Positions 4,297-46,787 of a stretch of 64,000 nt of DNA are shown here, one piece after another. The stretch spans positions 20,894,001-20,958,000 of the forward strand of contig NC_092671.1 in the NCBI RefSeq assembly GCF_964355755.1, in the 5' to 3' direction. This DNA is from Antedon mediterranea. Taxonomy: Eukaryota; Animalia; Echinodermata. The notes beneath the pieces are model-generated. The model had not been told where the DNA came from and made no database searches. It saw only the letters and a program-made list of their open reading frames with translations. Within the stretch, counting starts at the first letter, position 1, and each line of letters opens with the position of its first letter. Position numbers and translations under genes: made by a program.

Positions 4297-4828
4297 GTTG
4301 TTAGTGCTGAATTCTGTCAATTTTGTGTCATATAGTATATACATGCAAACAGTATAATCTGTATACATGTTACATACAGTGTAGAATAGGTGAAATTACG
4401 GGACCCGCCATTTATTCAAATTTGTAACATGGCGACGGTATCAAGATGAAACACTAAGGTAGCAATTTCGGAAGCAAATTATCTCAGCAACAACATATTA
4501 ACGTGTAGAAGAAATTTGAATACGTTTAATATTGATGCGCGCTCTTTTAAATATAATGAACTGTTGTTAGTGCTGAATTCTGTCAATTTTGTGTCATATA
4601 GTATATACATGCAAACAGTATAATCTGTATACATGTTACATACAGTGTAGAATAGGTGAAATTACGGGACCCGCCATTTATTCAAATTTGTAACATGGCG
4701 ACGGTATCAAGATGAAACACTAAGATAGCAATTTCGGAAGCAAATTATCTCAGCAACAACATATTAACGTGTAGAAGAAATTTGAATACGTTTAATATTG
4801 ATGCGCGCTCTTTTAAATATAATGAACT
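4297..4828. repeat. ~266 bp direct tandem duplication inside an A unit
   Basis: tgttgttagtgctgaattctg...aatataatgaac occurs twice back-to-back; other A units have one copy. Confidence 0.9.
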
Positions 4829-6934
4829 ATGATGCAAAAGAAGAAAATACGACTTTTTTTATTTAACTTGCAATATGATGACGTCACAACATCTGATTGG
4901 CAAAATGTTCACATGATTTCATATCTACAATCCAAGAGCTTCCAAAAAATGTTTTAATCGTGATTATCACATTTTATTTTGATGGGCTATTACAGATTAA
5001 AATTTACTGTAAAGATGAAATTAATGACCCACGTAATTAAAATTTTTAGGCATGATGACGTCATAAAAATTAAAATATTTTTATCTCATGCGAAAGATAG
5101 TTGATTGACCTAGACAATATTAAAATCTCGGAAAAAAAGAAATACGTATAAGCGTGATGCGCTCCATTGAATGTGATGAGCAATAACGAAAGCCAAAAAA
5201 ATCCTATATTTTACATTCGTGTGGCCATATGATGACGTCACAACATCCGTGAGGTAAAAATTCTGCATGAATTCATATCTACAACATATCTGCTTACATA
5301 TTAAGTTAAAAAAATTAGGGGTAATCGTTGATCCTGAGAAGCTATAAAACATTCAAAATAGGCATAATTTTGACAACATTTTGTAACTTTTTCAACTAAA
5401 ACGCGCGCAAATGGGCTAAATCAACGTGTTCGTATGACGTAATTTTTATTTGAAATGATGTCAATCTTTTTGAAAATGACTAGTAAAGGCTGGAAAATCA
5501 CAATTCAAGAGAAAAAAACATGATTTTCATGCTCTATGCGCACCGTGCGCGTAATATTTTTCGCGCGCGCGGTAATTTTGTACATGCTTAAAATGACATG
5601 AAACGCGTAGAAAGTTGATTAGAAATTATTTTTGCGCATTTTGAAATTTTAAATGCGCGTGCGCGCGTAACTTTGTGTAAAACACGCAATTTTTTTCAAA
5701 CAGAAAGTTAGCGCATGATATAAATTAAACTTTCACAAAGTGTCAATTAAAAATCACTTTTAGTTTTTAATCTATGATCAATCATAAAAAACCATAAAAT
5801 CGCGCGTAAGTCACGTTGCGCAACTCTGACGTAATTCAAAAATAGGAGGTGCACAACTTCACGTAAATGCCCACATGTTGTCAAAGTTATAAAATGTTAT
5901 GTTTACACATTTTAGAGAAACGCTCTACACAAAAATAGCGAGAAAGAAAGAAGAATAATACAGAAAAAAATATTGATCCCATACAATAACAAGGAGTTAT
6001 CCGCCAAGTGCGGATAACTAAAAAAAGATGATGAAACAGGACAGTTACAAGTAGTTATCCGCTCAATGCGGATAACTAACTAGACATGAAACTCGTCACT
6101 TTGACGAGTTAGTTATCCGCACGACAAACGCCACGTGCACGTCATACGTTGGAATATTGCACACCGAAAAAGATTATGTCATTATGACCTGAACTGAAGA
6201 ATATGATGTGTTGTTAGTACTGAATGCTGTATATTTTCTGTCATAGAGTATACACAGTATAATCTGTATACATGTCACAAACAGTGTAAAATAGGTGAAA
6301 TTACGGGACCCGTATTTTATTTTAATTTTCAAAAGGAAACGCAAAGGTACAGTAGTAATTTCGGAAGAAAATTATCTCAGCAACAACATATTAACGTTTA
6401 GAAGAAATTTGAATACGTGAAATATTAATGCGCGCTTTTTTAAATGTAATGAACTATGACGCAAAAGATGAAAATATGACTTTGTTTATTTAACTGGCCA
6501 TATGATGACGTCACAACATCTGATTGGCGAAAAGTTCACATGATTTCGTATCTACAATCCCATAGCTTCCTGAAAACGTTTTAATCGTGATTATCACATT
6601 TTATTCTTACGAGCTATAACAGATTAAAATTTACTGTAAAGATGAAATTAATGACGCTGTTAATTAAAATTTTTAGGCATGGTGACGTCATAAAAATTAA
6701 AATATTTTTAACTCATGCGTAAGATAGTTGATTGACCTAGACAATATTAAAATCTCAGAGAAAAAGGAATACAGATAGGCGTGATGCGCTCCATTGAATA
6801 TGATGAGCAATAACGAAAGAGACTAAAATCCTATATTTTACATTCGTGTGGCCATACGATGACGTCACAATGTCTGGTTAGCCATATTGATTCATGATCC
6901 GATTTCTACAACTCATCAACTTCCAGAATATGTA

Positions 6935-7583
6935 CCGTACTGACGCGGGTATAAGCCCACCCCCCTTGAACATGAAATCACGTCAAGTTTGGGGGGTGGG
7001 CTTATACCCGAGGATCCAAAAATGCAGATCGTCAAAAACAGCACATGTAAACTGTGTATTCCACCATGCGAGCGAGCGCCCTCACGTGTACGACGTTGCC
7101 TCTAAATACACGAGGTGTAGAGTGTCTGAAAATTAAGCTTATAGTTCGTGTAATTTATCGTAGAATATCTTATTTTAAACATCAATTGAACCAGAATTTA
7201 TCAAGCAGAAAAGCAAGTATACAATGTTCGTTACATAGAAATGTACCAAAGAAATTTAATAAGCTTGTTTATGGCAGCCGATACCAAATAGTGGTTTTCC
7301 GTTTTGGCGACTTGTAGCGTCGTGTGTGAAGCGATCATCGACCGCGATGGAGTGTAAACAAAACAGGACCGCTAGGCCTCATATGGCCTAGCGTATATTA
7401 GCCTAGCTTGGTTATGATCAAAGGTAGGTGTATTCGGTGTATGGACGTCGCCAAATACAAAATAATGTATTACGACACACACTGTAGATCTTCGAATTAA
7501 TGGGTGGGCTTATACCCGATTGCCTAATTTTTTATGAAAATTAGTCAAAAGTCGGGGGTGGGCTTATACCCGCGTCAGTACGG
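6935..7583. mobile_element. MITE with TA TSD (Tc1/mariner/pogo-like), inserted in an A unit
   Basis: ~30 bp TIR CCGTACTGACGCGGGTATAAGCCCACCCCC, TA on both sides, and internal copies of GGGTGGGCTTATACCCG. The empty site ggatatgTAatttaa is seen in paralogous A units. Confidence 0.9.
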
Positions 7584-9779
7584 TAATTAAAAAAAAGTTC
7601 ACCTCGTTGTTTAGAATCTATGACTGTTTAAAAAAAGGCATAATTTTGACAAATTTTTGAACTTTTTCATCAAAAACGCACGTAAAGTACCCAATTCAAC
7701 GTGCCCGTATGACGTAATTGTAAGTCGAAATTGTTTTAAAATTGGTAAAATTACTATAAAAGGCTGGAAAAACATAATTCAATAAAAAAAAATACTTTTA
7801 GCGCTACGTGCGCACCACGCGCATAAAATTGTTCGCGCGCGTGGGAAATTTTGACATGGTCAAAATGTCATGATCAGCGTAGAAAGTTGATTAAAAATTA
7901 ATTTTGCGCATTTTGAATTTTAAATGCGCGTGCGCGCGTAACTTTGTGTAAAACACGCAATTTTTTTACACAGAAAGTTAGCGCATGATATAAATTAAAC
8001 TTTTGCTAAGTTTCAATTTAAATTGTTATATGGTTTTAAATCTATGTTAAATACGCGAAATTCATAAAATCGTGCGTAAGTCACGTTGCGCATTTCTGAC
8101 GTCATTCACAATATGAGGTGCACAACTTCACGTGAATGCCCATATTATGTTGACAAAGTTATGAAATGTTATGTTTACACGTTTTTGAGATACGCGAGAT
8201 ACAAAAATAGAGAAATGCGCGTGCGCGCGTAACGTCTTGTAAAACATGGCATTTTTAATCCACAAAAAGTTTGCCCTTGATATGACTTAAATTTTCACAA
8301 AGTGTCAAAACAAATTTATGCTTGGTTTTTAGTCTATGATCAATCATAAAAAATGATAAAATCGCACGTAAGTCACGTTGCGCAACTCTGACGTCATTCA
8401 CAACTTCACGTAAATGCCCATATGTTGACAAAGTTATGAAATGTTCTGTTTACAAGTTTTTGAGATACGTGAGACACAAAAATGAGGGAGAAAGAAATAA
8501 GAAAAAAAAAAAAAAACTAGACATGAAACTCGTCACATTGACGAGTTAGTTATCCGCACCACGACAAACGCCACGTGCACGTCATACGTTGGAATATTGC
8601 ACTCAGATAAAGATTATGGCATTATGACAAGAACTGAAGAATATGATATGCTGTTAGTGCTGAATTCTGTCAATTTTGGATCATATAGTATACATGCAAA
8701 CAGTATAATCTGTATACATATTACATACAGTGTAGAATAGGTGAAATTACGGGACCCGCCATTTATTCCAATTTTTAACATGGCGACGGTATCAAAATGA
8801 AACACTTAGATAGCAATTTCCGAAGGAAATTATCTCAGGAACAACATATTAACCTGTAGAAGAAATTTGAATACGTAAAATATAGATGCGCACCCTTTTA
8901 AATGTGATGAACTATTACGCAACATATGAAAATACGTCTTTTTTTATTCAACTGGCCATATGACGACGTCACAACATCCGATTGGCAAAATGTTTACATG
9001 AATTCGTATCTACAATCCAATAGCTTCCAGAAAACGTTTTAATCGTGATTATCACATTTTATTCTGATGAGCTATAACAGATTAAAATTTACTGTAAAGA
9101 TAAATATAAATGACCCACGTTATTTACATTTTTAGACATGATGACGTCATAAAAATTAAAAAAATTTTTACTCTTGCGTAAGATAGTTGATTGACCTAGA
9201 AAATTTCAAAATCTGGGTTAAAATGGAATACGGATAAGTGGAGAGGCGCTCTATTAAATGAGATGCGCTATGACGAAAGATACAAAAATCCTATATTTTA
9301 TATTCGCGTGGCCATACGATGACGTCACAATGTCCGGTTTGCCATATCAATGCATGATTCCTTATCTACAACTTATCATCTTCCTGGATATGTAATTTAA
9401 ACAAAGTTCACCTCGTAGTTTAGAATCTATGATTGTTTAAAAAAAGGTATAATTTTGACAAATTTTTGAACTTTTTCCTCAAAAACGCACATAAATTATC
9501 CAATTCGACGTGCCCGTATGACGTAATTTGAAGTCGAAATTGTTTAAAAGTTGGTAAAATTACTCTAAAAGGCTTGAAAACATAAATCACGAGAGAAAAA
9601 TTGTTTTCAACGCTACGTTCGCACCGTGGGAATTTTTTACATGCTTAAAATGACATGAAACGCGTAGAATGTTGATTAGAAATTAATTTTTGGCAATTTG
9701 AAATTTTAAACGCGCGTGCGCGCGTAACTTCGTGTAAAACATGCAGTTTTTTCCCCATAGTCAGTTAGCGCAAGATATA

Positions 9780-10635
9780 CCGTATATTTCGGTGTATAAG
9801 TCGCACTTTTGACACGCAAATTTGACCTCTAAATTAAGGGTGCGTCTTATACACCGAACATAAATGCCTCACCACACAGATTGTACATAGGCCTAGCTAG
9901 GCTATCGTCACCTCGTTTGCTAGGCCTGAGTAGGCTAGGCCTAGCTACAGTAACTAACTAACGTAACGGCAACCTGCTTCTGCCTAGGCCTAGTTTTCAA
10001 GTCATTTTAGCATGATGTTATACTAAATATGATGAAAAGATTTGTTCATTATGGCGCTCCGATAAAATTTCATTTGTAAACGTTTACGTCGTACGATTGG
10101 AATAGTATTTATTTATTACAGTAGTTATACGCACGATCGCCGTACCCCAAGCGCAAGCCCTTCTTTTGGTGGCACATGGTGTACGGTATTCGACTAGTAT
10201 ATTCTCCAGGTGATTATAGCATGGACCTAGCGTACACACTTCTCGGATACATAGATACTAATCGAATACGATTGTCCGTGAAAACGTGCGTCCTCTCGAA
10301 ATGATCGAGCGAGGCTAGCCCACACACGTGCGTGTTACTACACACACGGTCATGCACTCAACGTTGCGGCGAAACTCATGAATAACAAGTTAGAAAGAAC
10401 TTGTTGAGGCTGGGCGCGGCCGAGCCTAGGTAAGAAAAAACCTAAATAAAGGACGCCGTTGTAGATATAACAAAATATATTATTACAATAATATTGATTA
10501 CAATTTAAAAAAACATTGTTTTGATGAAATATAAGGTGCGTCTTATACATCGACGATATGAAAAATACCGATATTTTACTCTCAGTTGGGGGTGCGTCTT
10601 ATACACAGGTGCGACTTATACACCGAAATATACGG
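9780..10635. mobile_element. MITE with TA TSD (Tc1/mariner/pogo-like)
   Basis: TIR CCGTATATTTCGGTGTATAAGTCGCAC, TA TSD, and subterminal GGTGCGTCTTATAC repeats. The empty site aagataTAacttaaac is at ~2385. Confidence 0.92.
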
Positions 10636-12707
10636 TAACTTAAACTTTTTTTTCAGTTTCAATTTAAATTGTTATATGGTTTTCGATCTATGTTAAATAC
10701 GCGAAATTCGGAAAAACGCGCGTAAGTCATGTTGCGCAACTCTGACGTCATTCAAAAATAGGAGGTGCACAATTTCACGTAAATGCCCACATGTTGACAA
10801 AGTTATGAAATGTTATGTTTACACGTTTTTGAGTTACGCGAGACACAAAAATGACAGAAAGAAAGAAGAATACAGAAAAAAAAAAAAAAAAAGATGATGA
10901 AACAGGACAGTTACAAGGAGTTATCCGCTCAATGCGGATAACTAAAAAAAAAAGAAAAATAATAATAAAGATTTCATACAATAACAATAGGTGATCATTT
11001 TATTCTAAATGATCACCTAATTATCGTAGGAGGAGATAGGAAAATGCAAAGCATCCTCGTATTATTGTGTGCGGGTATTTTTCCATGGACATTCATTAGA
11101 CAGTGTATACCACGATTGGAAAACACCCCTATTTGGGGCAAATCGTTGAACCTAAATTCGTTTTAATAGTCAATAACTAATTACCTAACTCAATTTAATT
11201 AGTAAACAGGGTTACATCAGATGGTTAAAATCAGTACCGAAAGTATGAACCAACTTTATATACCAACGAGTAAAAATTCTAGAAATAAACCGAGATTTAT
11301 CGAATTTTGCCCTTACGTAAATTTATATAGATACTGTCAAGTATCAGGTTGTGGCGCGCTGGTCTAGCTATCTCAATTTCGGTTTTTGCTTATATAATTG
11401 TTTAAATGCTGTCTTATATTTCTAAAGTCTTGTGTATTGAGTCAGGTCAGTTTTGTTGTTTTGTGTAATTCTGTTATTATTTCCGCTTTATATATACCGC
11501 TCGCTCCCCCTCTAGGAAGTGTAGACGATGGTTCTCGGAATGATAATGACTCGGCTAAAAAGTTTTAGAAGGACATTCTGGCCTGGACGATTTCGATCGG
11601 TTACCATATTTAAATGCTTTTGATATTGGTAAAACTAAACCTACTCACTCACAGTGTCTGAGATGATTAATAGCGTTTTACGTATAGTGTTTATTGTAGA
11701 TATGAAAAGTGTTAAAAAAAAAAAATAACAAATGCTTGATAAATTGTAGATAACAGTCTAGATGAAATCTACTAAAAAATAGTATAAATGTGTTATAAAT
11801 ATAATACAATATTGTGTGTATAAATGTGGATGGTCGTTAATTAGATGGTACTGTATTTGGATTTGGGGGGGAGGGGGGAGGGAGTGGCTTTAATTATTTT
11901 AATTGATGTTTTATTGGGGAGGTGTTCCGGGCGTTTATTCAAATAAATACCATCCTAATCGGTATAATTAATACATTATTCCGCGACACAGTGAGCCGTT
12001 TTGGCCTAAGAAGGAAGACGTTTTAGACGGCTTGCAATATGGGCAGAAGTATCCAGGGTCCTGACGGGACACAGATAGCACATAGTATACATGAGTCATG
12101 GCAGCTTACTCAACAACTCGGCTGTCAGGCTTTCATTCGATTTCAAACAAAAGCTCTTATCATTAATTCTCTCGATGTAATTTTATATAATATAATAATA
12201 ATACTCCTATGTTTTATGAATATATTTAATTTGATCTTCATGTACTATAGTACTATATCTTCACACGCGCGGTCCGAAAATAAACAAAAAATCAAAATGG
12301 CTATTGCCACCAAGCACGGCAAACTTAGTTGAAACAGGGAGTTGTTTTACAATAAATATAAAACCCTTTGTAATATCTTCCTAAGATAGAAATATGGAAC
12401 AATATCGTAATAGTGGAAACTAATGTTATAAAATCTACGTTTCGAGGTACATCTGAGATAGATAAGGTAGGTATCCAAGGCGGAGATTAGTACCGAAGTT
12501 TTCCATTGTGCTCGCCTATGTCAGAATTAACCATAATTTATATATAGACTTCATACAGGGGAGAACCAGCTTCAGACTAGTCCATTCTTGTATCAACGCT
12601 TGTCTAAAATATTTGTATTACGGTGTAAATCTAAACTTAGTAGGTCTAACATTACCCCTAGTGTTTTTCTGCTTAATATGAATTTGTTATGTAAATGCAT
12701 GTCCATG

Positions 12708-21120: not shown

Positions 21121-21718
21121 ACAATATACAATATTACAACACTACAACATGGCCATCCATGGCACGATAAATATTACTAAACAAAAGGTTGTGTATCGTG
21201 ATTGGTTACACTCTAATAAATGAATCACAGACTAGACACATACAGTTCCGCTCATCTTTCTACTAACAACCTTGGCTTAACGGTACCCATTAGCGAGCAC
21301 TGGAGAAAATCTTTATTCAATGCTGACGACGGACGATAGACATTCAGCACCCGTCCAAAACAACCAAATACTAACAACCAGACAGACAGCTGTTGCAAAG
21401 GCTATCTACATACAGGAGTGGAGTGTAATCTCAACAGAGAAGGCCACTCTTTAATATCAGATAACTAATAAACGGATTCCACAACCGTACCACTCTACGA
21501 CTACCACTTTAAGAATACCATTGTAAAGACATTTCCTCTAAATATTGTAAATTAAGAAATAAGATACAAAGAGATAATTGTACAAAAACAGCTTTTTCGA
21601 TTATCTTAGATATTACTGTATTGTATTGTATGCCTATTGTATTACACATACAAAAGGCCATTAATTAGGTGATCATTTAGAATAAAATGATCACCTATTG
21701 TTATTGTATGAAATCTTA

Positions 21719-24700
21719 TTAGTTATCCGCTTTCACGGATAACTCCTTGTAACTGTCCTGTTTCATCATCTTTTTAGTTATCCGCTTAGTAGCGGATAAC
21801 TCCTTGTGATTGTAGTGGATCAATATTTTTTTTTTTTTTTTCTGTATTATTAGTTATCCGCTTAGTAGCGGATAACTCCTTGTAATCGTCCTGTTTCAAT
21901 TTTATTAGTTATCCGCACATGGCAGTGTGCGGATAACTCCTTGTTATTGTATGGGATCTTTTTTTTTTTCTTTTTCTGTATTATTAGTTATCCGCTTAGT
22001 AGCGGATAACTCCTTGTAATCGTCCTGTTTCAATTTTATATTATTCTTCTGTCTTTCTCCCTCACTTTTTGTGCAGAGCGTATCTCTAAAATGGGTAAAC
22101 ATAACATTTCATAAATTTGTCAACATATGGGCATTTACGTGAAGTTGTGCACCTCCTATTTTTGAATGACGTCAGAGTTGCGCAACATGACTTACGCGCG
22201 ATTTTATGATTTTTTATGATTGCTCATAGACTAAAAACCAAGCATAATTTTGTTTTGACACTTTGTGAAATTTTAAGTCATATCAAGCGCAAACTTTTTG
22301 TGGATTAAAAATGGCATGTTTTACAAGAAGTTACGCGCGCACGCGCATTTAAAATTTCAAAATGCGCAAAATTAATTTATAATCAACTTTCTACGCGTTT
22401 CATGTTGTTTTAAGCATGTAAAAAATTCCCACGCGTGCGCAACTTTTTACGTGTGCGGTTGGCACGTAGCATTAAAAACATGTTTTTTTCGAGTGATTTA
22501 TGTTTTTCCAGCCTTTTATAGTAATTTTACCAACTTTTAAACACTTTCGACTTACAGTTACGTCATACGAGCACGTCGAATTGGACAATTTGCGCACGTT
22601 TTTGATGAAAAAGTACAAAAATTTGTCAAAATTTTGCCTTTTTTTAAACAGTCGTAATTTCTAAACTACACGGTCAACTTTTTGTGGATGACATATTCCG
22701 GAAGTTGATGAGTTGTAGATATCGGATCATGTATTAATATGGCTAACCGGACATTTTAACGTCATCGTATGGCCACGCGAATATAAAATTGAGGATTTTT
22801 GTATCTTTCGTCATAGCTCATCACATTTAATAGAGCGCATGTCCACTTATCCATTTTCCATTTTCAACCCGATTTTGATATTGTCTAGGTCAATCAACTA
22901 TCTTTCGCATGAGTTAAAAATATTTTAATGATTATGACGTCATCATGCCTAAAAATTTAAATTACATGTGGCATTAATTTCATCTTTACAGAACATTTTA
23001 ATCTGTTATAGCTCGTAAGAATAAAATGTGATAATCACGATTAAAACGTTTTCTGGAAGCTATTGGATTGTAGATACAAAATCATGTAACAATTTGGCAA
23101 ATCGGATGTTGTGACGTCATCATATGGCCAGTTAAATAAAAAAAGTCGTATTTTCATATTTTGCGTCATAGTTCATTACATTTAAAAGAGCGCGCATTAA
23201 TATTTTACGTATTAAAATTTCTTCTACACGTTAATATGTTGTTGCTGAGATAATTTCCTTCCGAAATTGCTATATCAGTGTTTCATTTTCATACCGTCAC
23301 CATGTTAAAAAATGGAATAAATGACGGGACCCGTAATTTCGCCTATCCTACACTGTATTAATATGTATACAGATTATACTATGTATACTGTAAATAGTAT
23401 ATGACACAAAATATACAGCATTTAGCACTAACAACATATTATACTCTTCAGTTCATGTCAATATGCCATAATCTTTTTCTGTGTCCACGTGCACGTGGCG
23501 TTTGTCGTGCGGATAACTAACTCGTCAAAGTGACGAGTTTCATGTCTAGTTCTTCTGTCTTTCTTCCTTTTTTTGTGAGCCCTGTTTCTCTAAAATGTGT
23601 AAACAGAACATATCATAACTTTGTCAACATATAGATATTTACGTGAAGTTGTGCACCTCCTATTTTTGAAAAACGTCACAGTTGCGCAACGTGACTTGCG
23701 CGCAATTTTATGAATTTAAATGATTGATCATAGATTAAAAACCGAAAGTCATTTTGTATTGAGACTTGGTGAAAATTTAATTCATATCAAGAGTCAACTT
23801 TCTGTGGATTAAAAATGGCATGTTTCACACAAAGTTACGCGCGCACGCACATTTAAAATTTTAAAATGCGAAAAATCAATTTCTAATCAACTTTCTACGC
23901 GTTTCTTGTCATTTTGAGCATGTCAAAAATTCCCACACGTGCGCAAATTTTTACGCGCGAGGGGCGCATGTAGCGTTAAAAACATACTTTTTTCGTGTGA
24001 TTTATGTTTTTCCAGCCTTTTCTAGTAATTTTACCAACTTTTAAACAATTTCGACTTAAAATTACGTCATACGAGCACGTCGAATTGGATAATTTGCGCG
24101 CGTATTTCATCAAAAAGCTAAAAAAATCGTCAAAATTATGCATTTTTTTAAACAGTCGTAGTTTCTAAACTAAACGGTGAAAGTTATTTTTATTACATAT
24201 TCTGGAAGTTGATGAGTTGTAGATATCAAATCATACATTAATATGGCTAACAGGACATTGTGACGTCATCGTATGGCCACGCGAATATAAAATATAGGAT
24301 TTTTGTCTCTTTCGTTATTGCTCATCACATTCAATGGAGCGCATCACGCTTATCCGTATTCCATTTTCTCCGAGATTTTAATATTGTCTTGGTCAATCAA
24401 CTACCTTTCACATGAGTTAAAAATATTTTAATTTTTGTAACGTCATCATGCCTAAAAATTTTAATTACGTGGGTCATTAATTTCATCTTTACAGTAAATT
24501 TTAATCTGTTATCGCTCGTAAGAATAAAATGGGATAATCACGATTAAAATGTTTTCTGGAAGCTATTGGATTGTAGATACGAAATCATGTAAACATTTTG
24601 CCAATCGGATGTTGTGACATCATCATATGGCCAGTTAAATAAAAAAAGTCGTATTTTCATCTTTTGCGTCATAGTTCATTACATTTAAAAGAGCGCGCAT

Positions 24701-27700
24701 CAATATTTCACGTGTTCAAATTTCTTCTACACGTTAATATGTTGTTGCTGAGATAATGTCATTCTGAAATTTTTACTTTTGCATTTCATTTTGAAACCTT
24801 CAAGATGTTAAAAATTACAATAAAATACGGGTCCCGTAATTTCACCTATTTTACAATGCTTGTGATGTGTATACAGATTGTACTGTGTATACTATGTATA
24901 TGACACAAAATAACAGAATTCAGAAATAACAACATATAGTCCAGATCCCTATGTCAAAAAAAGTGCCTTCGTGTGCAGATTATGGGGAAAGTGTAAACAT
25001 TGTGTTTTATGAATATTTGAATCATGCTGGTTATAAAAACCCATGTTGTCAAATTTCTAAAATTCATCTTTGACCTCTGACCTCAATTTGAATGTTTTGA
25101 CCCATTGAAAACAAAATGATCATATCTTTGCAACGCTAAGATTAAATTAAATAATTTTAGTGTCAAATTATTTGGGAGATGCATATTAATATTCGTTCTA
25201 ATGGAAAAGTTTGTCCAAAAATGGCTGGAAGTATGATTTTTGGCATATTTGACCTTTGACCTACATATCATATAACTCCGTAACTAATAGTTGGACAAAC
25301 TTTAAATAGGGCTCAAATTAATCTGAAGGTATATGTTTCTATTCAGTCTAATAAGAACTTTTACAAGAAAATGACCCGAAATATTTTTATTGACCTTTGA
25401 CCTGTACTGGTAGTACATATTTCTATAATCTCAAAAACTATTTGCCTTAAAATGGTTGTTTTTGTGAAATGGTTCGAACAATTTACATTTATATGTTGTA
25501 TAATAACAACATTTCATAGAAATGTAAAAGAATTCTATTTATGATCACTAACTTTATAATTTATTAACATCACTAGCATTTGTTATAATATTAAAATGTG
25601 TTATATTTGCTGATTTTAAGCACTTCACATGAATTTATCAGAATTATGTGTATTTAATATAAAGTTTTTTTTTTTTATATAAAGAAAATTTAATTGTCTA
25701 TCAAATAAGACTATTTTCAAATTATTATGGCTAAAACTTAATTAGATACGGGCAAAAAAGTGTATTTTTACTTGTGTGAACAGCGCCCTCAATCTTCATT
25801 TTTTCCCAAAAAATACCACATTTTTATGTGTTTTCCTGAACTAAACAGGTTATAACTTTGTTTTAAAGACTTTTTACAGTAACCTGTAATTTACATACCT
25901 CTTTTATAACGTACTAGGTCAGTTTCTGAAAAAATTGAGAAAAATATTCCAATAGCTTGATATTTTTGTTGAGGTTATTACATGATACACACAAAAAAAA
26001 AATTTTAATTTTGAGCTAAAAGTCCATCTTTTTGGTTTAATAAAAGCTATCTAGCAGATATTAATACGCAAAATTCATATTTTATTGGATAGATATTATG
26101 ATTATCTTTCCAATAAAATATGCTGTTTGTGTAAGAATGGCTGTACAAGATTGTTTGTACTGGACCAAAAAAGATGGATTTTTAGCACAAAATCAAAATA
26201 TTTTTAGCATGCACCATGTAATGACCTCAGGAAAAATATCAAGCTATAAAAATATTGTTTTCATTTTATCTCAGAAACTTACTTAGTATATGGTAGAAGG
26301 TGTATGTAAGTTACACGTCACTGACAACAAATCTTTTAAAAAGTTACAACCAGCTAAGTTTATGAAACCACATAAAAATGTGGTATTTTTTGGGGAAAAA
26401 TTAAGATTGAGGGCGCTGTTCACATAAGTAAAAATACACTTTTTTGCCTGTATCTAATTAAGTTTTAGCCATAATAATTTGAAAATAGTCTTATTTGATA
26501 GATAATTAAATTGTCTTTATATAAAAAAAAAACAACATTATATTAAATACACATATTTTCTGATAAATTCATGTGAAGTGCGTAAAATCAGCAAATATGA
26601 CACATTTTAATATTATAACAAATGCTAGTGATGTTAATAAATTACAAAGTTAGTGATCATAAATAAAATTCTTTTACATTTCTATAAAATGTTGTTATTA
26701 TAAAACATATAAATGTAAATTGTTTGAACCATTTCACAAAAACAACCATTTTACGGCCAATAGTTTTTGAGATTATAGAAATATGTACTACCAGTACAGG
26801 TCAAAGGTCAATAAAAATATTTCGGGTCATTTTCTTGTAAAATTTCTTATTAGACTGAATAGAAACATATACCTTCAGATTAATTTGAGCCCTATTTAAA
26901 GTTTGTCCAACTATTAGTTACGGAGTTATATGATATGTAGGTCAAAGGTCAAATATGCCAAAAATCATACTTCCAGCCATTTGTGGACAAACTTTTCCAT
27001 TAGAACGAATATTAATATGCATCTCCCAAATAATTTGACACTTAAATTATTTCATTTAATCTAAGCGTTGCAAAGATATGATCATTTTGTTTTCAATGGG
27101 TCAAAACATTCAAATTGAGGTCAGAGGTCAAAGATAAATTTTAGAAATTTGACAACATGGGTTTTTATAACCAGCATGATTGAAATATTCATAAAACACA
27201 ATGTTTACACTTTCCCCATGATCTGCACACGAAAATACATAGGGATCTGGACTAATATCATATTCTTCAGTTCAGGTCATAATGCCTTAATATTTTTCTG
27301 TGTGCAATATTCTAACGTATGACGTGCACGTGGCGTTTGTCGAGCGGATAACTAACTCGTCAAAGTGACGAGTTTCATGTCTAGTTCTTATTTCTTTCCC
27401 ATTTTTTTGTGAGTCACGTTTCTCTAAAATGTGTAAACATAACATTTTATAACTTTGACAACATGTGGGCATTTACGTGAAGTTGTGCATCTCCTATTTT
27501 GAATGACGTCAGAGTTGCGCAACGTGACTTGCGCATGATTTTATGATTTTTAATGATTGATCATAGCTTAAAAACCAAGAGTAATTTTTTTTTTACCCTT
27601 TATGAAAATTTAAGTCATATCAAGGGCAAACTGTTAGTGCACTAAAAATGGCATGTTTTACAAAAAGTTATGCGTGCACGCGCATTTAAAATTTCAAAAT

Positions 27701-30700
27701 GCGCAAAATTAATTTCTAATCAACTTTCTACGCGTTTCATGTCATTTTAAGCATGTAAAAAATTCCCACGCGTGCGCACATTTTTACGTGTGCGGTGCGC
27801 ACGTAGCATTAAAAACATATTTTTTTCGAGTGATTTATGTTTTTCCAGCCTTTTATAGTAATTTTACCAACTTTTAAACACTTTCGACTTAAAGTTACGT
27901 CAAACGAGCACGTCGAATTGGACAATTTGCGCACGTTTTTGATGAAAAAGTACAAACATTTGTCAAAATTATGCCTTTTTTTAAACAGTCGTAATTTCTA
28001 AACTACACGGTCAACTTTTTGTGGATGACATATTCCGGAAGTTGATGAGTTGTAGATATCAAATCATGTATTAATATGGCTAACCGGACATTTTAACGTC
28101 ATCGTATGGCCACGCGAATATAAAATTGAGGATTTTTGTATCTTTCGTCATAGCTCATCACATTTAATAGAGCGCATCTCCACTTATCCATTTTCCATTT
28201 TCACCCCGATTTTGATATTGTCTAGGTCAATCAACTATCTTTCGCATGAGTTAAAAATATTTTAATTATTATGACGTCATCATGCCTAAAAATTTAAATT
28301 ACATGTGGCATTAATTTCATCTTTACAGTAAATTTCAATCTGTTATAGCTCGTAAGAATAAAATGTGATAATCACAATTAAAACGTTTTCTTGAAGCTAT
28401 TGGATTGTAGATACAAAATCATGTGAAAATTTTGCCAATCGGATGTGGTGTCGTCATCATATGGCCAGTTAAATAAAAAAAGTCGTATTTTCATATTTTG
28501 CGTTATAGTTCATTACATTTAAAAGAGCGCGCATTAATATTTCACGTATTCAAATTCCTTCTACACGTTAATATGTTGTTGCTGAGATAATTTCCTTCCA
28601 AAATTGCTACCTTCGCGTTTCATTTTAAAACCATCAGCATGTTAAAAATTGCAATAAATAGCGGGTCCCGTAATTTCCCCTATTCTACACTGTATGTGAT
28701 ATGTATACAGATTACACTGTGTATACTATATGAATCAAAATAATAGAATTCAGCACTAACAACATATCATAGTCTTCAGTTCAGGTCATAATGCCATAAT
28801 CTTTTTCCGTGTGCAATATTCAAACGTATGGCGTGCACGTGGCGTTTGTCGTGCGGATAACTAACTCGTCAAAGTGACGAGTTTCATGTCTAGTTTTTTT
28901 TTCTGTATTCTTCTTTCTTTCTGTCATTTTTGTGAAGAGCATATCTCAAAAACGTGTACAGTTAACATTTCATAACTTTGTCAACATATGGGCATTCACG
29001 TGAAGTTGTGCTTTTTTATTTTTGAATGACGTCAGAATTGCGCAACATGACTTACGCGCGTTTTAACGAATTTAGCGTATTTAACATTAATCAAAAACCA
29101 TATAACAATTTAAATTGAAACTTAGCAAAAGTTTAATTTATATTCTGCGCTAACCGACTGTGAAAAAAAAATTCCCACGCGCGCGAATATTTTTACGCGC
29201 GTGGTGCGCACGTAGCGTTGAAAACAATTTTTTTCGCGTGATTTAGGTTTTTCCAGCCTTTTCTAGTAATTTTACCAACTTTTAAACGATTTCGACTTAA
29301 AATCACGTCATACGAGCCCGTAGAATTGGATAATTTATGTGCGTTTTTTATGAAAAAGTTCAAAAATTCATCAAAATTTGTTAAAATTATACCTTTTTTT
29401 AAACAGTTGTAGTTTCTAAACTAAACGGTAAAAGTTGTTTTTATTACGTTTTCTGGAAGATGATGAGTTGTAGATATCGTATCATGCATCAATATGGCTA
29501 ACCGGACATTTAGACGTCATCGTATGGCCACTCGAATATAAAATATAGGGATTTTTTCTCTTTTGTCATAGCGCATCACATTTAATAGAGCGCATCTCCA
29601 CTTATCCGTTTTCCATTTTCACGCCGATTTTGATATATATCTAGGTCAATCAACTATCCTTTGCATGAGTTAAAAATATTTTAATTTTTATGACGTCATC
29701 ATGCTTAAAAATTTAAATTACGTGTGCCTTTAATTTCATCTTTACAGTAAATTTCAATCTGTTATAGCTCGTAAGAATAAAATGTGATAATCACGATTAA
29801 AACGTTTTCTTGAAGCTATTGGATGGTAGATACAAAATCATGTGAAAATTTTGCCAATCGGATGTGGTGACGTCATCATATGGCCAGTTAAATAAAAAAA
29901 GTCGTATTTTCATATTTTGCGTCATAGTTCATTACATTTAAAAGAGCGCGCATTAATATTTCACGTATTCAAATTTCTTCTACACGTTAATATGTTGTTG
30001 CTGAGATAATTTCCTTCCAAAATTGCTACCTTCGCGTTTTATTTTAAAACCATCAACATGTTAAAAATTGCAATAAATAGCGGGTCCCGTAATTTCCCCT
30101 ATTCTACACTGTATGTGATATGTATACAGATTACACTGTGTATACTATATATGAATCAAAATAATAGAATTCAGCAATAACAACATATCATAGTCTTCAG
30201 TTCAGGTCATAATTCCATAATCTTTTTCCGTGTGCAATATTCCAACGTATGGCGTGGACGTGGCGTTTGTCGTGCGGATAACTAACTCGTCAAAGTGACG
30301 AGTTTCATGTCTAGTGTCATCTTCTTTCTTTCTGTATGATTTTTGTGTAACGCTTTTCTCTAAAACTTGCAAACATAACATTTAGTTAACTATGTTAACA
30401 TTTTGACATTTATGTAACGTCGTCAAGCGAAGCTTTTCATGATGTTTACAATTGCGCAACGCGACGTACGCGCGATTTAACGATTTTCTTGTATTTAACA
30501 TATGTCGAAAACCAAATAACATTTTAGAGTGAAACTTTGCAAAAGTTTAATTTATATCATGCGCTAACTGTCTGTTGAAAAAAAATTGCGTGTTTTACAC
30601 AAAGTTACGCGCGCACGCGCATTTAAAATTTCACAATGCGCAAAATTAATTTCTAATCAACTTTCTACGCGTTTCATGTCGTTTTAAGCATGTAAAAAAT

Positions 30701-31844
30701 TCCCACGCGTGCGCAAATTTTTACGTGTGCGGTGTGCACGTAGCATTAAAAACAAATTTTTTCCGCGTGATTTATGTTTTTCCAGCCTTTTCTAGTAATG
30801 TAACCAACTTTTAAACAATTTCGACTTAAAGTAACGTCATACGAGCACGTCGAATTGGCCAATTTGCGCGTGTTTTTGATGAAAAAGTTAAAAAAATCGT
30901 CAAAATTATGCCTTTTTTTAAACAGTCGTAATTTCTAAACAGCATGGTCAACTTTTTGTGGATGACATTTTCTGGAAGTTGATGAGTTGTAGATATCGGA
31001 TCATGTATTAATATGGCTAACCGGACATTGTGGCGTCGTGTGGCCACGCGAATATAAAATTTAGGTTTTTTTTATCTTTCGTCATAGCTCATCACATTTA
31101 ATAGAGCGCATCTCCACTTATTCGTTTTCCATTTTCACCCCGATTTTTATATTGTCTAGTTCAATCAACTATCTTTCGCATGAGTGAAAAATATTTTAAT
31201 TTTTATGACGTCATCATGCATAAAAATTTTAATTACGTGTGGCATTAATTTCATCTTTACAGTAAATTTCAATCTGTTATAGCTCGTAAGAATAAAATGT
31301 GATAATCACGATTAAAACTTTTTCTGGAAGCTATTGGATTGTAGATACGAAATTATGTAAAAATGTTGCCAATCGGATGTTGTGATGTCATCATATGGCC
31401 AGTTAAATAAAAAAGGTTGTATTTTCATCTTTTGCATCATAATTCATTACATTTAAAAGAGCGCGCATCAATATTTCACGTATTCAAATTTCTTCTACAC
31501 GCTAATACGTTGTTGCTGAGATAATTTCCTTTCGGAATTGCTACCTTCGTGTTTCATTTTAAAACCGTCAACATGTTAAAAATTGCAATAAATAGCCGGT
31601 CCCGTAATTTCACCTATTCTATGTATGTCACTGTATGTGATATGGATACAGATTATACTGTGTATACTATATATGAATTTAAATAATAAAATTCAGCAAT
31701 AACAACATATCATATTCTTCAGTTCAGTTCATAATGCCAACGTGAACACTTCCTTTTGTCCTCAACCTATCCCCTTAATGTTAATGTTGCACCACTTGCG
31801 CGGCGGATAACCAAACTCGTCAAAGTGACGAGTTACATGTCTAG
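21719..31844 (+). mobile_element. Five serially nested Helentron-like family A elements
   Basis: Heads TTAGTTATCCGC..(G/A)CGGATAACTCCTTGT at 21719, 21774, 21850, 21905 and 21984. Tails ending CTAG at 23549, 27384, 28893, 30314 and 31844. Confidence 0.9.
24937..27254. mobile_element. 2.3 kb palindromic (fold-back) Academ-like element
   Basis: TAGTCCAGATCCCTATGT...ACATAGGGATCTGGACTA. The 3-bp TSD ATA is confirmed by the empty site acaacATAtcata in other A units. The arms meet at ~26095. Confidence 0.88.
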
Positions 31845-33437
31845 TTCCGCTTTATTTCTTTCTGTACAGATTTTGTGTGTCAATTATCTCAAAAAGTAAA
31901 ATGTCAATGATCACAACAATTTTACAATATCTTCCAAATACTTTAACTTAATCCTAATAAGCTTTTCAGCGTGATCACTCAACCGTGACGTCATTTATAC
32001 GCCATTTTGTGAAATCACATTATCAATCATATCTCCATAATTCATTATCACATATTAATGAAATTTATTACACGTAAACTTCAGGTCAAGGGTAAAAATA
32101 TAAGCAAGTAAAAACGCACGTGCACGTAGAGTCATGCGCGTAAAATCGCGCGTTCAAAATTTAAAAAGCTCAAAATTAAGTTTTAATCAATTTAGAGCAT
32201 GAATTAGGCCATTTGCGTGTTTCAAAAAATTACTGCGCAAAAATGCGTTTTTCAGCGCGCGATTCTTAAAAAGCGTAAAAATATGATTTTTTTGTAGAAA
32301 TCGCATTCTACTCACCATCCTTAGTACATTCACCGAATTTGAGTTCGTTCCGACTTAAAATAACGCTATACGAGCATGTTAAAAATGACAAAATGCGCAC
32401 ATTAACTGCATAAAAGTGCTGAAAATGATGAAAAATAAGGCATTTTTAAAATGAAAATCATTCTTCAGAATGCACGATGACCCCCAATTTTTTTTAATTA
32501 TTCTGGAAGCCATTGAGTTCTAGATATAAATTCATGTACACATTTGACGTACAAAATGTTGTGAAGTCACCAAATGGCCACTCAAATTTAAAAATTAGGT
32601 TTTTTTCTCTTTTGTCATAGATTATCACATTCAACTGAGCGCATCTCGGTTATTTTGTGCCAGATTTTCGCTAAATTTTTTGTATATGATTGCTCATTTA
32701 ATTATCTTTCTCATATCTTACAGCTCTTCCGAATTAAATGTGACCTTGATGATTATAATTTATTATGAAAGCTGATGAAATGTAGATATGAATTCATATA
32801 AAAATTAAGCCTATCGAATGTTGTGATGTTATCATATGGCTAGTTGAAGTTAAAACGTTGTTTTTAAATTTCTTTAGTCGAAGTTATACAAATTTCAAAG
32901 AGCGCGCATTGCGCTTCTACGTGTCAAATTCTCTTCCAATCCTTATATTTATTTGCTCAATTAATTATCTTTCGAAATTGTCATCTTCGAGTTTATTTTG
33001 ATAATTCCATCATACCAAAAAAATAGAACATGATGTGGGTCCCGTAATTTCACCTCTGCTACACTGTATATAGATATACAGATACTGTACATATTGTATA
33101 TGACACATAATAGGTACAACTCAGCACTATAAGTGTATATGCATCATGTCATAGGATGGCGTACATCAGCTTTTTACGATCGCATGTTAACGTACGTGCA
33201 TGTTTAAAAAGTGTTAATTTCATTAAAATGATAAAAATGATCACCTATAATTCGTCAAAGTGACGAATTAAACTCTAGTGATCTATTAATATTGTTCGTG
33301 GTCGATTATATAGAAGCTAAATTTCCAAAAAGGGTGATTTTTTTGGACAAAAATCACTCAAACATGACTTATAAATTGCGTTTTCAACTGGTATACAAGG
33401 TATTTCATCATTGTTTACCTCCGCCAAGGAGGTATAT

Positions 33438-42059: not shown

Positions 42060-45000
42060 TTAGGTGATCATTTAGAATAAAATGATCCCCTATTGTTATT
42101 GTATGCAATCTTTATTATTTCTTTTTAGTTATCCGCATTCAGCGGATAACTCCTTGTAACTGTCCTGTTTCATCATCTTTTTTTTCTGTATTTTATGTGT
42201 CACCCGTATCTGTAAAACTTGCAATCATAACATTTCGTAACTTTCTCAACATATCGTCATTCATATGAAGTTGTGCAGCGAAGCTTTTCAGCATGTTTAC
42301 AATTGCGCAACGTGACTTACGCGCCATTTTATGAATTTCACGTATTTAACATAGGTCAAAAACAAAATAACATTTTAAATTGAAACTTTGCAAAAATTTA
42401 ATTTATATCATGCGCTAACTTTTTGTTTAAAAAAAATTGCGTGTTTTACACAAAGGTACGCGCGCATGCGCATTTAAAATTTCAAAATGCGCAAAATTAA
42501 TTTCTAATCATATTTCTACGCGTTTCATGTTATTTTAGACATGTCAAAAATTCCCAGGCGCGCGCAAATTTATACGCGCGCGGTGCGCACGTAGCGTTAA
42601 AAACATATTTTTTTCGCGTGATTTATGCTTTTTCAGCTTTTTCTAGTAATTTTACCAACTTTTAAACAATTTCGACTTCAAATTACGTCATACGAGCACG
42701 TTGAATTGTACAATTTGTGCGCGTTTTTGATGAAAAGGTTCAAAAAATCGTAAAAATTATGCCTTTTTTTAAACAGTCGTAATTTCTAAACTACACAATC
42801 AACTTTTTGTGGATGACATATTCTGGAAGTTGATGAGTTGTAGATATCGGATCATGTATTAATATGACTAACCGGGCATTGTGACGGCATTGTATGGCCA
42901 CGCGAATATAAAATTTAAGATTTTTGTATCTTTCGTCATAGCTCATCACATTTAATAGAGCGCATCTCCACTTATCCGTTTTCCATTTTCACTTCGATTT
43001 TGATATTGTCTAGGACAATCAACTATCTTTGGCACGAGTTAAAAAAAATTTATTTTTATGACGTCATCATGCCTAAAACTGTTAATTACGTGTGGCATTA
43101 ATTTCACCTTTACAGTCAATTTTAATCTGTTATAGCTCGTAAGAATAAAATGTGATAATTATGATTAAAACGTTTTCTGGAAGCTATTGGATTGTAGATA
43201 CGAAATCACGTGAAAATGTTGCCAATCGGATGTTTTGACGTCATCATATGGCCAGTTAAATAAAAAATGTCGTATTTTCATCTTTTGCGTCATAATTCTT
43301 TACATTTAAAAGAGCACGCATCAATATTTCACGTATTCAAATTTTTTCTACACGTTAATATGTTGTTGCTGAGATAATTTCCTACCAAAATTGCTACCTT
43401 CGCGTTTCATTTTAAAACCGCCAACATGTTAAAAATTGCAATAAATTGCAGGTCCCATAATTTCAATTATTAGGTGATCATTTAGAATAAAATGATCACC
43501 TATTGTTATTGTATCAAATCTTTATTTTTCTTTTTATTGTTTCTGTACACTATTTTGTGTAACAATTATCTCAAAAAGTTTAATGTCAATGATTACCAAA
43601 ATTTCAGAATATCTTTCAAATAATATAACTTAATCCTAATGAGCTTTCCAGCGTGATCACTCATCCGTGACGTCATTTATACGCCATTTTGTGAAATCAC
43701 ATTATCAATCATATCTCCATAATTCATTATGACATATTAATGAAATTCACTACAGGTAAACTTCAGGTCAAGGGTAAAAATATTAGCAAATAAAAAGTTG
43801 CGCGTTTCAAGGTCATGCACGTGGAATCGCGCGTTAAAAATTTAAAACGCGCAAAATTAGGTTTTGATCAATTTAGAGCATGAATTAGGCCATTTGCGCG
43901 TTTCAAAAAATTACTGCGCAAAAATGCGTTTTTGTGCGCACGATTCTTAAAATGCGTAAAAAATAAAATTTGATGTATAAATCACATTCTACTCACAATC
44001 CTTAATACATTCACCAATTTTGAGTCCATTCCGACTTAAAATAACGCTATACGAGCACGTTAAAAATGACAAAATGCGCACACTAATTGTACAAAAGTGC
44101 TAAAAATGGTAAAAAATAAGGACTTTTTAAAATGAATATAACTCTTCAGAATGGCAGATGACCCCCAATTTTTTTAACTTATTATGGAAGCCAATAAGTT
44201 GTAGATACAAATGTATATACACATTAGACGTACAAAATGGTATGACGTCATCAAATGGCCACTTGAATTAAAAAATTAGAAATTTTTATCTTTTTGTGTG
44301 GGTTATCACATTCAATAGGGCGCATCTCCGTTATTTGAGCCCGATTTTCGCACAACTTTTAGTATGTGCTTGCTCAATTAATTATTCTTCTAATGAGTTG
44401 TCAACATTTTTATTTTGATGACGTCATCACGCGTAAAAACTTGAATAACCTAGGTCGTGTAATTTCAGCTACACCATACATTTGAATATCTTATAGCTCT
44501 TCAGAATTAAAGGTGACCTTGAAGATTATAACTTATTATGAAAGCTGATGAAATTTAGATATGAATTCATATTAAAATTAAGCCTATCGGATGTTGTGAT
44601 GTTATCATATGGCCAGTTGAAGTTAAAAAGTAGTTTTTAAATTTCTTTATTCAAAGTTATACAAATTTCAAAGACCGCGCATTGCGCTTCTACGTGTCAA
44701 ATTTTCTTCCAATCCTTATATTTATTTGCTCAATTCATTATCTTTCGAAATTGTCATCTTCGAGTTTATTTTGAAAATTCCATCATACCAAAAAATTAGA
44801 ACACGATATGAGTCCCGTAATTTCACCTATGCTACACTGTATATAGATATACAGTATATACTGTACATATTGTATGACACATAATAGGTAGAACTCAGCA
44901 CTATAAGTGTATATGCATCATGTCATAGAATGGCGTACATCAACTTTTAACGATCGTATGTTAACGTACATGCATGTTTAAAAAATGTTAATTTGATTAA

Positions 45001-46787
45001 AATGATAAAAATGATCACCTATAATTCGTCAAAGTGACGAATTAAATTCTAGTTCTACACTGTGTTTGTAATATGTATACATATTATCAATATATACTAT
45101 TTGACACAAAATTGACAGAATTCAGCACTAACAACATATCATATTCTTCAGTTCAGGTCATAATGCCATAATGTTTTTCTGTGTGCAATATTCCAACGTA
45201 TGACGTGCACGTGGCGTTTGTCGTGCGGATAACTAACTCGTCAAAGTGACGAGTTACATGTCTAGTTTTCTTTTTATTGTTTCTGTACACTATTTTGTGT
45301 AACAATTACCTCAAAAAGTTTAATGTCAATGATTACCAAAATTTCAGAATATCTTTCAAATAATATAACTTAATCCTAATAAGCTTTCCAGCGTGATCAC
45401 TCATCCGTGACGTCATTTATACGCCATTTTGTGAAATCACATTATCAATCATATCTCCATAATTCATTATAACATATTAATGAAATTCACTACAGGTAAA
45501 CTTCAGATCAAGGGTAAAAATATTAGCAAATAAAAAGTTGCGCGTTTGAAGGTCATGCACGTGAAATCGCGCGTTCAAAATTTAAAACGCGCAAAATTAG
45601 GTTTTGATCAATTTAGAGCATGAATTAGGCCATTTGCGCGTTTCAAAAAATTACTGCGCAAAAATGCGTTTTTGTGAGCACGATTCTTAAAATGCGTAAA
45701 AAATAAATTTGATGTATAAATCACATTCTACTCACAATCCTTAGTACATTCACCGATTTTGAGTCCATTCCTACTTAAAATAACGCTATACGAGCACGTT
45801 AAAAATGACAAAATGCGCACACTAATTGTACAAAAGTGCTAAAAATGGTAAAAAATAAGGACTTTTTAAAATGAATATAACTCTTCAGAATGGCAGATGA
45901 CCCCCAATTTTTTTAACTTATTATGGAAGCCAATAAGTTGTAGATACAAACGTATATACACATTAGACGTACAAAATGGTATGACGTCATCAAATGGCCA
46001 CCTGAATTAAAAAATTAGGAATTTTTATCTTTTTGTGTGGGTTATCACATTCAATAGAGCGCATCTCTGTTATTTGAGCCCGATTTTCGCACAACTTTTA
46101 GTATGTGCTTGCTCAATTAATTATTCTTCTAATGAGTTGTCAACATTTTTATTTTGATGACGTCATCATGCGTAAAAACTTGAATAACCTAGGTCGTGTA
46201 ATTTCAGCTACACCATACATTTGAATATAGCTCTTCAGAATTAAAGGTGACCTTGAAGATTATAACTTATTATGAAAGCTGATGAAATGTAGATATGAAT
46301 TCATATTAAAATTAAGCCTATCGGATGTTGTGATGTTATCATATGGCCAGTTGAAGTTAAAAAGTAGTTTTTAAATTTCTTTAGTCAAAGCTATACAAAT
46401 TTCAAAGACCGCGCATTGCGCTTCTACGTGTCAAATTTTCTTCCAATCCTTATATTTATTTGCTCAATTCATTATCTTTCGAAATTGTCATCTTCGAGTT
46501 TATTTTGAAAATTCCATCATACCAAAAAATTAGAACACGATATGAGTCCCGTAATTTCACCTATGCTACACTGTATATAGATATTATACAGTATATACTG
46601 TACATATTGTATGACACATAATAGGTAGAACTCAGCACTATAAGCGTATGCATCATGTCATAGGATGGCGTACATCAACTTTTAACGATCGTATGTTAAC
46701 GTACATGCATGTTTAAAAAATGTTAATTTTATTAAAATGATAAAAATGATCACCTATAATTCGTCAAAGTGACGAATTAAATTCTAG
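42060..46787 (+). mobile_element. Nest 3: family B containing family A (42125-45265), which contains another B (43470-45052)
   Basis: Heads at 42060 (B), 42125 (A) and 43470 (B). Tails at 45052 (B), 45265 (A) and 46787 (B). The host sequence resumes correctly after each tail. Confidence 0.92.

Follow-up and report, generated by a model that had tools for sequence, protein, structure and literature searches.

A six-deep nest of HINE-like elements in Antedon mediterranea and the case for serial insertion close to resident 5' ends

Results

Six heads and six bodies at one locus

The stretch analysed here (the window; 64,000 nucleotides of Antedon mediterranea, assembly GCF_964355755.1, contig NC_092671.1, positions 20,894,001 to 20,958,000) carries on its plus strand, at 21665..33278, a nest of short non-coding elements with Helentron-like ends. 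The elements belong to two related families, A and B, which together make up 41% of the 64-kb window, and each complete copy has a 5' head with a hairpin, a pyrimidine-rich pad just behind it, a body and a 3' tail. A motif scan of the window returned 18 head rows and 17 tail rows; five of the head rows were palindromic hairpins read on the opposite strand and were dropped, leaving 13 heads (nine A and four B). In the nest, heads start at 21665 (B) and then at 21719, 21774, 21850, 21905 and 21984 (A1 to A5), spaced 54, 55, 76, 55 and 79 bp, and tails end at 23549, 27384, 28893, 30314 and 31844, all with the A-type subterminal inverted repeat (subTIR), and finally at 33278 with the B-type subTIR. 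An initial annotation, made from the sequence alone, had described this stack of one B and five A heads followed by five A tails and a last B tail, each built as subTIR, hairpin and CTAG, and the scan confirmed it. The same annotation spoke of six headless bodies of about 1.5 kb. There are six bodies, but body 1 is continuous with head A5, and the length holds except for body 2, which spans 3.8 kb with a foreign insert, and for the shorter bodies 4 and 6 (Table 1).

Termini, folding and coding content

In all 13 heads the subTIR is shortly followed by its inverted copy. The A subTIR is 12 bp long at the heads and at the five A tails of the six-deep nest, one of which (31803) departs from it by a single mismatch, and the B subTIR is 13 bp long. 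The families thus differ in their subTIRs, but they have the 3' hairpin in common and are about 69% identical along 674 bp of the body. All 17 tails carry, between the 3' subTIR and the 3' end, a stem-loop with a 9-10-bp stem and a 3-nt loop, the 15-nt core of which has 20 matches in the window against 0.08 expected; 17 are the tails, two are the same hairpins on the other strand and one (41349) is unrelated. CTAG was part of the tail motif pattern, and it also followed all 17 hairpins in a search made independently of that pattern, in agreement with the CTRR end of canonical Helitrons. All 13 heads start with TT and not with the TC of canonical Helitrons (HLE1). The base before the head is A in 8/13 cases and T or G in 5/13, and the base after the tail is T in 17/17, so that an A|T insertion reading fits most sites; exact excisions are compatible with A|T and T|T alike. 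When folded as DNA, the B head, the A5 head, an A tail and the B tail gave z scores of -5.1, -7.7, -3.1 and -6.6, and in each case none of 200 shuffles folded as well.

No open reading frame inside the six-deep nest reaches 100 aa, and of the 15 that reach 60 aa the longest measures 81 aa from stop to stop, which rules out a coding function; a structured RNA family was ruled out by an Rfam search of the nest, which matched zero families. The whole window has 10 frames of 100 aa or longer; no Rep/helicase(-endonuclease) frame is among them, and of the three covered by a Pfam scan one is a reverse transcriptase. The body carries one diverged repeat with a 355-bp period (74%), and the tract after the head is, by inspection, degenerate T/C rather than the GTCY microsatellite of DINE-1 sensu stricto. 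Given their subTIRs, inverted copy, 3' stem-loop and lack of coding capacity, we would file A and B as non-coding, HINE-like HLE2 elements (HINE/DINE-1-type) with a CTAG end. Searches elsewhere were unproductive: the head pattern found two loci in metagenome contigs, both unrelated and without an element body, and the tail hairpin found none in viral contigs and two in bacterial genomes, which were taken as chance without being read.

Excision of the nest and pairing of heads with bodies

In silico excision from the inside out, proposed with the initial annotation as a check, rebuilt elements measuring 1,497-1,593 bp, and these could be aligned with the intact copies found at 21984, 10945, 6021, 42125 and 43470. 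The T/C-rich tract had been said to resume after each tail; the pad resumed cleanly at 3/5 nested junctions, whereas a 7-nt repeat was left at A2-in-A1 and a 16-nt duplication at A3-in-A2. Counting all junctions, flanking repeats were absent at 6/11 and measured 4-16 nt at 5/11. At four of the nine in-element junctions direct repeats span the cut (21773/30315, 7 nt; 21849/28894, 16 nt; 42124/45266, 7 nt; 10946/1094, 9 nt). These are of low complexity and may reflect chance or slippage, and they could also be target duplications, which HINEs are said to lack.

Assembled contigs from public short-read runs, X4, X5 and X6 from one sample and X1 from another study, provided evidence from outside the window. 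The stretch is present in seven runs, four of which come from one sample that is possibly the source of the sequence and are therefore not independent. The best 15 of 376 contig joints were considered, and all depth ratios refer to contig depth, which is not copy number. Three of these 15 join the B head directly to body 6 (21717 to 31850, 21718 to 31845 and 21721 to 31851), with a summed depth of about 20x the unique flank, and represent the empty B site. Within the six-deep nest the B subTIR that matches the first head is found solely on the last tail. The intact A1-headed copy 42125 has body 5 as the nearest of the six bodies (distance 0.17 as against 0.25-0.42), and the A1-type head 6079 of a second nest is completed by a body that shares 94% identity and a rare 3' end with body 5. 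The 24-mer that follows the A1 hairpin is identical in heads 42125 and 10945 and has one difference in head 6079. On these comparisons the B-body 6 and A1-body 5 pairings are well supported, and the outer brackets of the nest appear secure.

Further in, head A4 with body 2 restores the pad exactly when judged against the intact copy at 6021, and heads A3 and A5, identical over 52 nt, belong to the most similar pair of bodies (93%). The bodies are mosaics along their length, body 4 among them, the last 500 bp of which are 98% identical to body 3. The A bodies are only 83-93% identical (neighbours 84-88%); the six did not arise as a concatemer from a single template. In a reference-based test over 720 orders, 28-72 orders scored better than last-in-first-out as compared to 336-420 for first-in-first-out.

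Position of insertions within host copies

Three of the 13 heads, all B, lie in non-family DNA and the other ten within family copies, where A elements have entered both B and A hosts and all ten heads are oriented as the host. Head 6079, which lies directly against a tail within a pad, was not counted as placeable; eight of the remaining nine start at host positions +54..+79, which is 21-48 nt past the host hairpin, and the ninth (43470) at host +1345. The tails give a matching picture: 11 of the 17 are followed by the remainder of a pad, one by an off-pad body, one by a head and four by non-family DNA, and if the last two classes are left out, 11/12 resume a pad. Together with the excisions and the empty B site, these counts support the proposal that copies inserted serially into a pad inside the previous copy's 5' end.

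The initial annotation further proposed a test for enrichment of the pad over other T-rich sites. Within the window, 8/9 insertions at the pad has a probability of 8e-13 if any position is allowed, 2e-9 for W|TT sites and 1.5e-6 for sites followed by six or more T within 10 nt; with one event counted per nest plus the off-pad case (3/4) the values are 5e-5, 0.001 and 0.011. Enrichment is seen at these levels but is weak under the strictest null, which is taken up below. Each A copy tested has 3-4 body runs of at least T6, none of which was seen used, and 0/9 A heads lie in non-family DNA, although 1,205 sites just as rich in T are available in the 34 kb beyond the nests. Neither the off-pad insertion nor the two fully visible B insertions in unique DNA are in T-tracts, which indicates that T-richness is not required.

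Contigs outside the window

Among the best 15 of 376 joints, the deepest in X4 joins a B head to a B head (21717 to 21664), and a return to a head start is seen in no other of the 15. This joint occurs in 6, 5 and 5 contigs of X4, X5 and X6, at 43, 38 and 32x the zero-mismatch flank contig. Family depth exceeds the flank more than 1,000-fold in most body bins. In X1, family-like contigs are far deeper than the flanks and have pad-like loose ends at the B cut site, and X1 gave none of the best 15 joints; to judge from these contigs, the A/B family is probably shared with a relative.

Other nests, family copies and neighbouring features

The window holds two further headed nests and a decayed headless pair (Table 1). 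The second nest departs from the one-to-one match of heads and bodies that was noted for the six-deep nest: the latter is balanced at 6:6, but its neighbour has three A heads for five A tails. The first and last A bodies of the second nest are 97% identical, which is consistent with collapse between identical heads. Its B host is 98.8% identical to the intact B at 43470, whereas its A guests are mostly 80-87% alike, suggesting that it was filled quickly by several old A subfamilies, unless gene conversion has intervened. A precise tail-to-head junction at 6080/6079 (minus strand), the sole one found in the window, has the form expected of a circle intermediate; the two elements joined are of different subfamilies, which points to tandem insertion and not to a concatemer.

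Table 1. Features of the six-deep nest and of other family copies, as positions in the window, with cuts as positions in the host element
Feature	Positions	Strand	Description
Head of outer B element, left half of pad	21665..21718	+	13-bp subTIR and inverted copy, hairpin 21666-21697; cut +54
Head A1, left pad half	21719..21773	+	cut +55
Head A2, left pad half	21774..21849	+	T17 run; cut +76
Head A3	21850..21904	+	first 52 nt as in A5; cut +55
Head A4	21905..21983	+	longer hairpin; cut +79
Innermost intact A element	21984..23549	+	1,566 bp; head A5, unused pad, body 1, 3' subTIR 23509-23520, hairpin, CTAG
Body 2	23550..27384	+	1,514 bp without foreign insert; partner head A4
Foreign foldback element in body 2	24937..27254	.	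2,318 bp; outside the A/B family
Body 3	27385..28893	+	1,509 bp; partner head A3; 93% identity to body 1
Body 4	28894..30314	+	1,421 bp; partner A2 (strict nesting) or a lost A1-type head
Body 5	30315..31844	+	1,530 bp, distinctive 3' end; partner head A1
Body 6	31845..33278	+	1,434 bp; B-type subTIR, hairpin, CTAG; closes outer B element
Second nest, same families	1..11020	-	B head, 3 A heads, 5 A tails, B body running past window edge
Third nest, balanced B[A[B]]	42060..46787	+	A in B pad at +65; inner B off-pad
Intact inner B of third nest	43470-45052	+	at +1345 of A host; the one off-pad case
Decayed headless pair	54482..56760	+	3' half of A body (tail 55366), then pad remainder of a more diverged body

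Several other features adjoin or interrupt these copies. The foldback element in body 2 has arms that are 91% alike over their full length, 18-bp perfect ends starting TAG and a 3-bp flanking repeat, and its empty site is seen in contigs (joint 24930 to 27255). Its ends are reminiscent of Academ elements, but an open-access literature search to classify the 2,318-bp insert returned nothing relevant and lent this no support. An intact A copy starting at 6021 has, near its 3' end, a 266-bp tandem duplication (4296-4828, 99%). A bodies of the second nest contain, at differing positions, TA-bounded inverted-repeat elements of 860 bp (9778-10637) and 653 bp (6933-7585) with perfect ends of 29 and 32 bp, which are presumably Tc1/mariner-like. 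Old fragments of the families lie outside the nests at 40431-40582 (with a lone degenerate tail, 40582), 19199-19393, 53491-53588 and 54093-54480, and among them an inverted piece adjoins the headless pair. A 530-aa open frame at 50380-51972 (plus strand) contains a reverse transcriptase domain (PF00078, E 2.5e-21), and two pieces resembling long interspersed elements (15820-17340 and 19695-20162) were scanned without a Pfam match. Overall the sequence looks like that of an AT-rich eukaryote carrying reverse transcriptase sequence of LINE type. An 18/23/41-bp minisatellite forms inverted arms about 1.7 kb apart at 48598-50285, possibly another foldback element, and recurs at 52914-53094.

Discussion

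The initial observation of a deep, bracketed nest is real and was correctly read in outline. We regard serial self-insertion as such, whether assisted by the resident head or passive, as probable. A more specific account, on which opinion could fall either way, is that the stack is of HINE type and arose by repeated insertion in the same direction into a T-rich pad 21-48 bases past the resident 5' hairpin, to which the transposase would have been drawn. An autonomous Rep/helicase(-endonuclease) element, presumed to lie elsewhere in the genome, would copy the 1.5-kb elements through a circle; the transposase would dock at the resident 5' end, or would already be unwinding it, and would join the incoming strand to a T of the next flexible run of pyrimidines on the downstream side, the spacing being only loosely fixed. 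Each insert would displace the body and tail of its host by 1.5 kb and bring a fresh head and pad, so that heads would accumulate and bodies line up in reverse order. Later, collapse may occur between near-identical stacked heads, and multi-headed chimeras may form when a copy runs from an outer head through to the first tail; both would explain lost heads and mixed pairings of heads and bodies. The bolder form, in which a rolling-circle transposase recognises the 5' hairpin of its own or a sister family and integrates 20-50 bases downstream, with A almost confined to B and A heads, parasitic on a parasite as it were, and collapse leading to headless 1.5-kb arrays, is doubtful. The safe harbour proposed in the initial annotation is conjectural, as is its route to satellite-like arrays, at which only the headless tandem bodies hint.

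A number of observations weigh against the hairpin-guided account. The window was chosen because of the nest pattern, events inside one nest are not independent, and no contig spans the nest. Under the strictest null, a post hoc one that requires 12 or more T within 10 nt to either side, P rises to 0.005 for 8/9 and to 0.2 for 3/4 (0.09 on both strands). The cut sites are spread over 25 nt, A inserts into B despite the different subTIRs, and a T-tract on one strand would equally predict the orientation bias. The second nest is short of two heads, and the 6:6 parity of the first may be partly luck. The depth of the head-on-head joint could come from one amplified double-headed subfamily. The A2-body 4 junction, with its 16-nt duplication, is a weak link: the fit of head A1 to body 4 scores 96, little below the 102 for body 5, and contigs hold joints of both an A1-type head to body 4 (21770 to 28895, about 13x flank) and A2 to body 4 (21830 to 28906, about 7x). 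With regard to order, last-in-first-out ranks 11/120 in the correlation of head and body distances (r = 0.64), first-in-first-out ranking 57/120, and 28-72 of the 120 A-only orders beat last-in-first-out in the reference test, which included no A3-type references. The last-in-first-out order put forward initially thus stands for the B and A1 brackets, but among the inner A copies it is plausible, not proven.

If the resident head is not recognised at all, an endonuclease might simply cut the best T-rich tract, with neutral inserts persisting where they land, by the linker logic known from Alu-in-Alu insertion. This passive form of serial self-insertion is possible, if on balance not favoured. 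The pad is the most pyrimidine-rich 40-mer in 7/8 hosts and accounts, on average, for 42% of the sites under the strictest T-rich definition, and the scatter of cuts across the tract and the crossing between families with unlike subTIRs would both be expected. Head 6079 abuts a tail instead of a head, which may point the same way. In the portions of the literature consulted, a preference of HINEs for T-rich targets is documented (PMC4067079, PMC7492417). However, passive cutting does not account for the unused T6-T10 runs of the bodies, for the equally T-rich outside sites that hold none of the nine A heads, or for the off-pad and unique-DNA insertions that are not in T-tracts.

Insertion followed by reshuffling is improbable. 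Here true insertions would have been few, multi-headed chimeras would have moved as units, heads would have been lost by recombination and the 6:6 match would be partly coincidence; for example, one A1-type head may have been lost while A2 and A3 came as a double head. An A1-type head on body 4 reproduces the intact copy 10945 almost letter for letter, whereas A2 on body 4 requires a duplication, and the head deficit of the nest at 11020-1, the mosaic bodies and the chimera model published for FoHeli (in the part consulted) point the same way. Yet pad insertions are still required for the first double heads, two compensating events are needed in place of one short duplication, the A2-to-body 4 joins are present in contigs, and B-body 6, A1-body 5, A4-body 2 and A3-body 3 fit without reshuffling.

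We consider it very improbable that a rolling-circle concatemer or tandem duplication multiplied heads and bodies separately in place. Tandem Repeats Finder does report a 134-bp period over 21716-22039 (87%), heads A3 and A5 are the same, and bodies 3 and 4 agree over their last 500 bp. However, 3' identity is as high between different nests (body 5 and copy W, 98-99%), neighbouring A bodies are too diverged, and a concatemer should consist of complete units in series, each with head, body and tail, or else of many heads sharing a single tail, whereas here five A copies are enclosed by a B element. Had an A2-A3 block been duplicated to give A4-A5, body 2 should resemble body 4; they are 86% identical overall and 72% in the first 250 bp, which rules this duplication out. 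That the nest is an assembly artefact of a high-copy repeat is hardly credible despite the lack of a spanning contig and the great family depth, as the copies differ by 7-17% and have indels of their own, the three headed nests, which occur on both strands, are all built by one grammar, and short-read contigs independently give head-on-head joins and empty sites.

Helentron target choice is a matter of hypothesis in the work consulted, where self-insertion of FoHeli was inferred from leftover heads. Intact brackets provide a dated series of real target sites in neutral DNA, and thereby a means to distinguish passive choice of T-tracts from head-guided targeting. If targeting is head-guided, 60-80 bp would constitute a portable landing pad for a rolling-circle transposase, of possible practical use, and guidance by the hairpin would make it a self-renewing, structure-guided landing site that builds tandem arrays without a rolling-circle concatemer. 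If it is passive, this is an ordinary, tidy case of an element carrying its own best target. For annotation, stacked heads and headless bodies are likely to be mis-split by repeat pipelines.

The comparisons that follow draw on parts of the cited papers. HINE/DINE-1 elements are non-autonomous Helentrons (HLE2; Thomas, Vadnagara & Pritham 2014, PMC4067079; oyster Cg_HINE, PMC7492417) and resemble the present elements in their 11-13-bp subTIRs, the inverted copy after the 5' subTIR, the 3' stem-loop, the lack of coding sequence and the variable tract of low complexity past the head; T on either side of the insertion, a further HINE trait, fits the sites here as well as A|T does. HINE/DINE-1 elements differ in having a GTCY microsatellite where we find a degenerate T/C tract, and a satellite array where we find one diverged repeat, and in lacking the CTAG end, which the initial annotation had counted as a HINE/DINE-1 feature but which in these sources is a mark of Helitron1 and proto-Helentron. 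The sections consulted do not speak of positional self-nesting in HINE/DINE-1 ('nested' has 0 matches in PMC7492417), and nicking of poly-T by the endonuclease is only hypothesised by Thomas et al. (2014). The 5' TT and 3' hairpin-CTAG are also like the ends of proto-Helentron-Pi and canonical Helitron1; unlike our elements, with their HINE-like subTIR architecture and 5/13 heads after T or G, Helitron1 starts with TC and has no subTIRs.

Amplified arrays of Helitron origin are known in plant centromeres (Xiong et al. 2016) and have been explained by rolling-circle copying of a single template, while dimers of transposable elements (McGurk & Barbash 2018) are attributed to insertion-site preference (both as reviewed in PMC12628747). 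The likeness lies in tandem Helitron-derived arrays and in dimers from site preference; the plant arrays have many 5' ends and one 3' end, unlike the different subfamilies here, each with its own tail. Helraiser transposes via circles with precise end-to-end junctions and without local hopping (PMC4778049, PMC5876387), and the part of PMC13085455 consulted adds nothing on nesting. In Alu, which has a self-insertion hotspot in sense orientation (Levy et al. 2010, PMC2836564), the element likewise carries its own best target with a single positional hotspot, but the analogy is functional only, Alu being a retrotransposon inserted by L1 target-primed reverse transcription with its hotspot in mid-element. 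Open-access titles and opening abstracts, the layer of the literature that was searched (subscription journals, Repbase and supplements lie outside it), held none on balanced nests with stranded bodies or on a measured positional pad in an animal HINE.

The closest parallel is FoHeli (Helitron2/HLE2) of Fusarium oxysporum, in which short stacked 5' termini of 31-85 nt are attributed to self-insertion near the 5' end and a chimera model runs from an outer head to the first tail (PMC5148889). Copies there have two, three or five heads, and a FoHeli1 copy with five 5' termini (PMC13342296) counts against the suggestion that such depth had not been described, though it has a single tail; the Xenopus element HelenXT233 has two left termini (PMC11417382). 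Many heads with one tail are moved on as chimeras in FoHeli, whereas in Antedon the stranded bodies and tails are retained in reverse order, so that the insertion history can be read, and two non-autonomous families with different subTIRs use one pad. Self-insertion with stacked heads is thus already published, and what is new here is the preserved brackets, the pad common to two families and a targeting question made testable.

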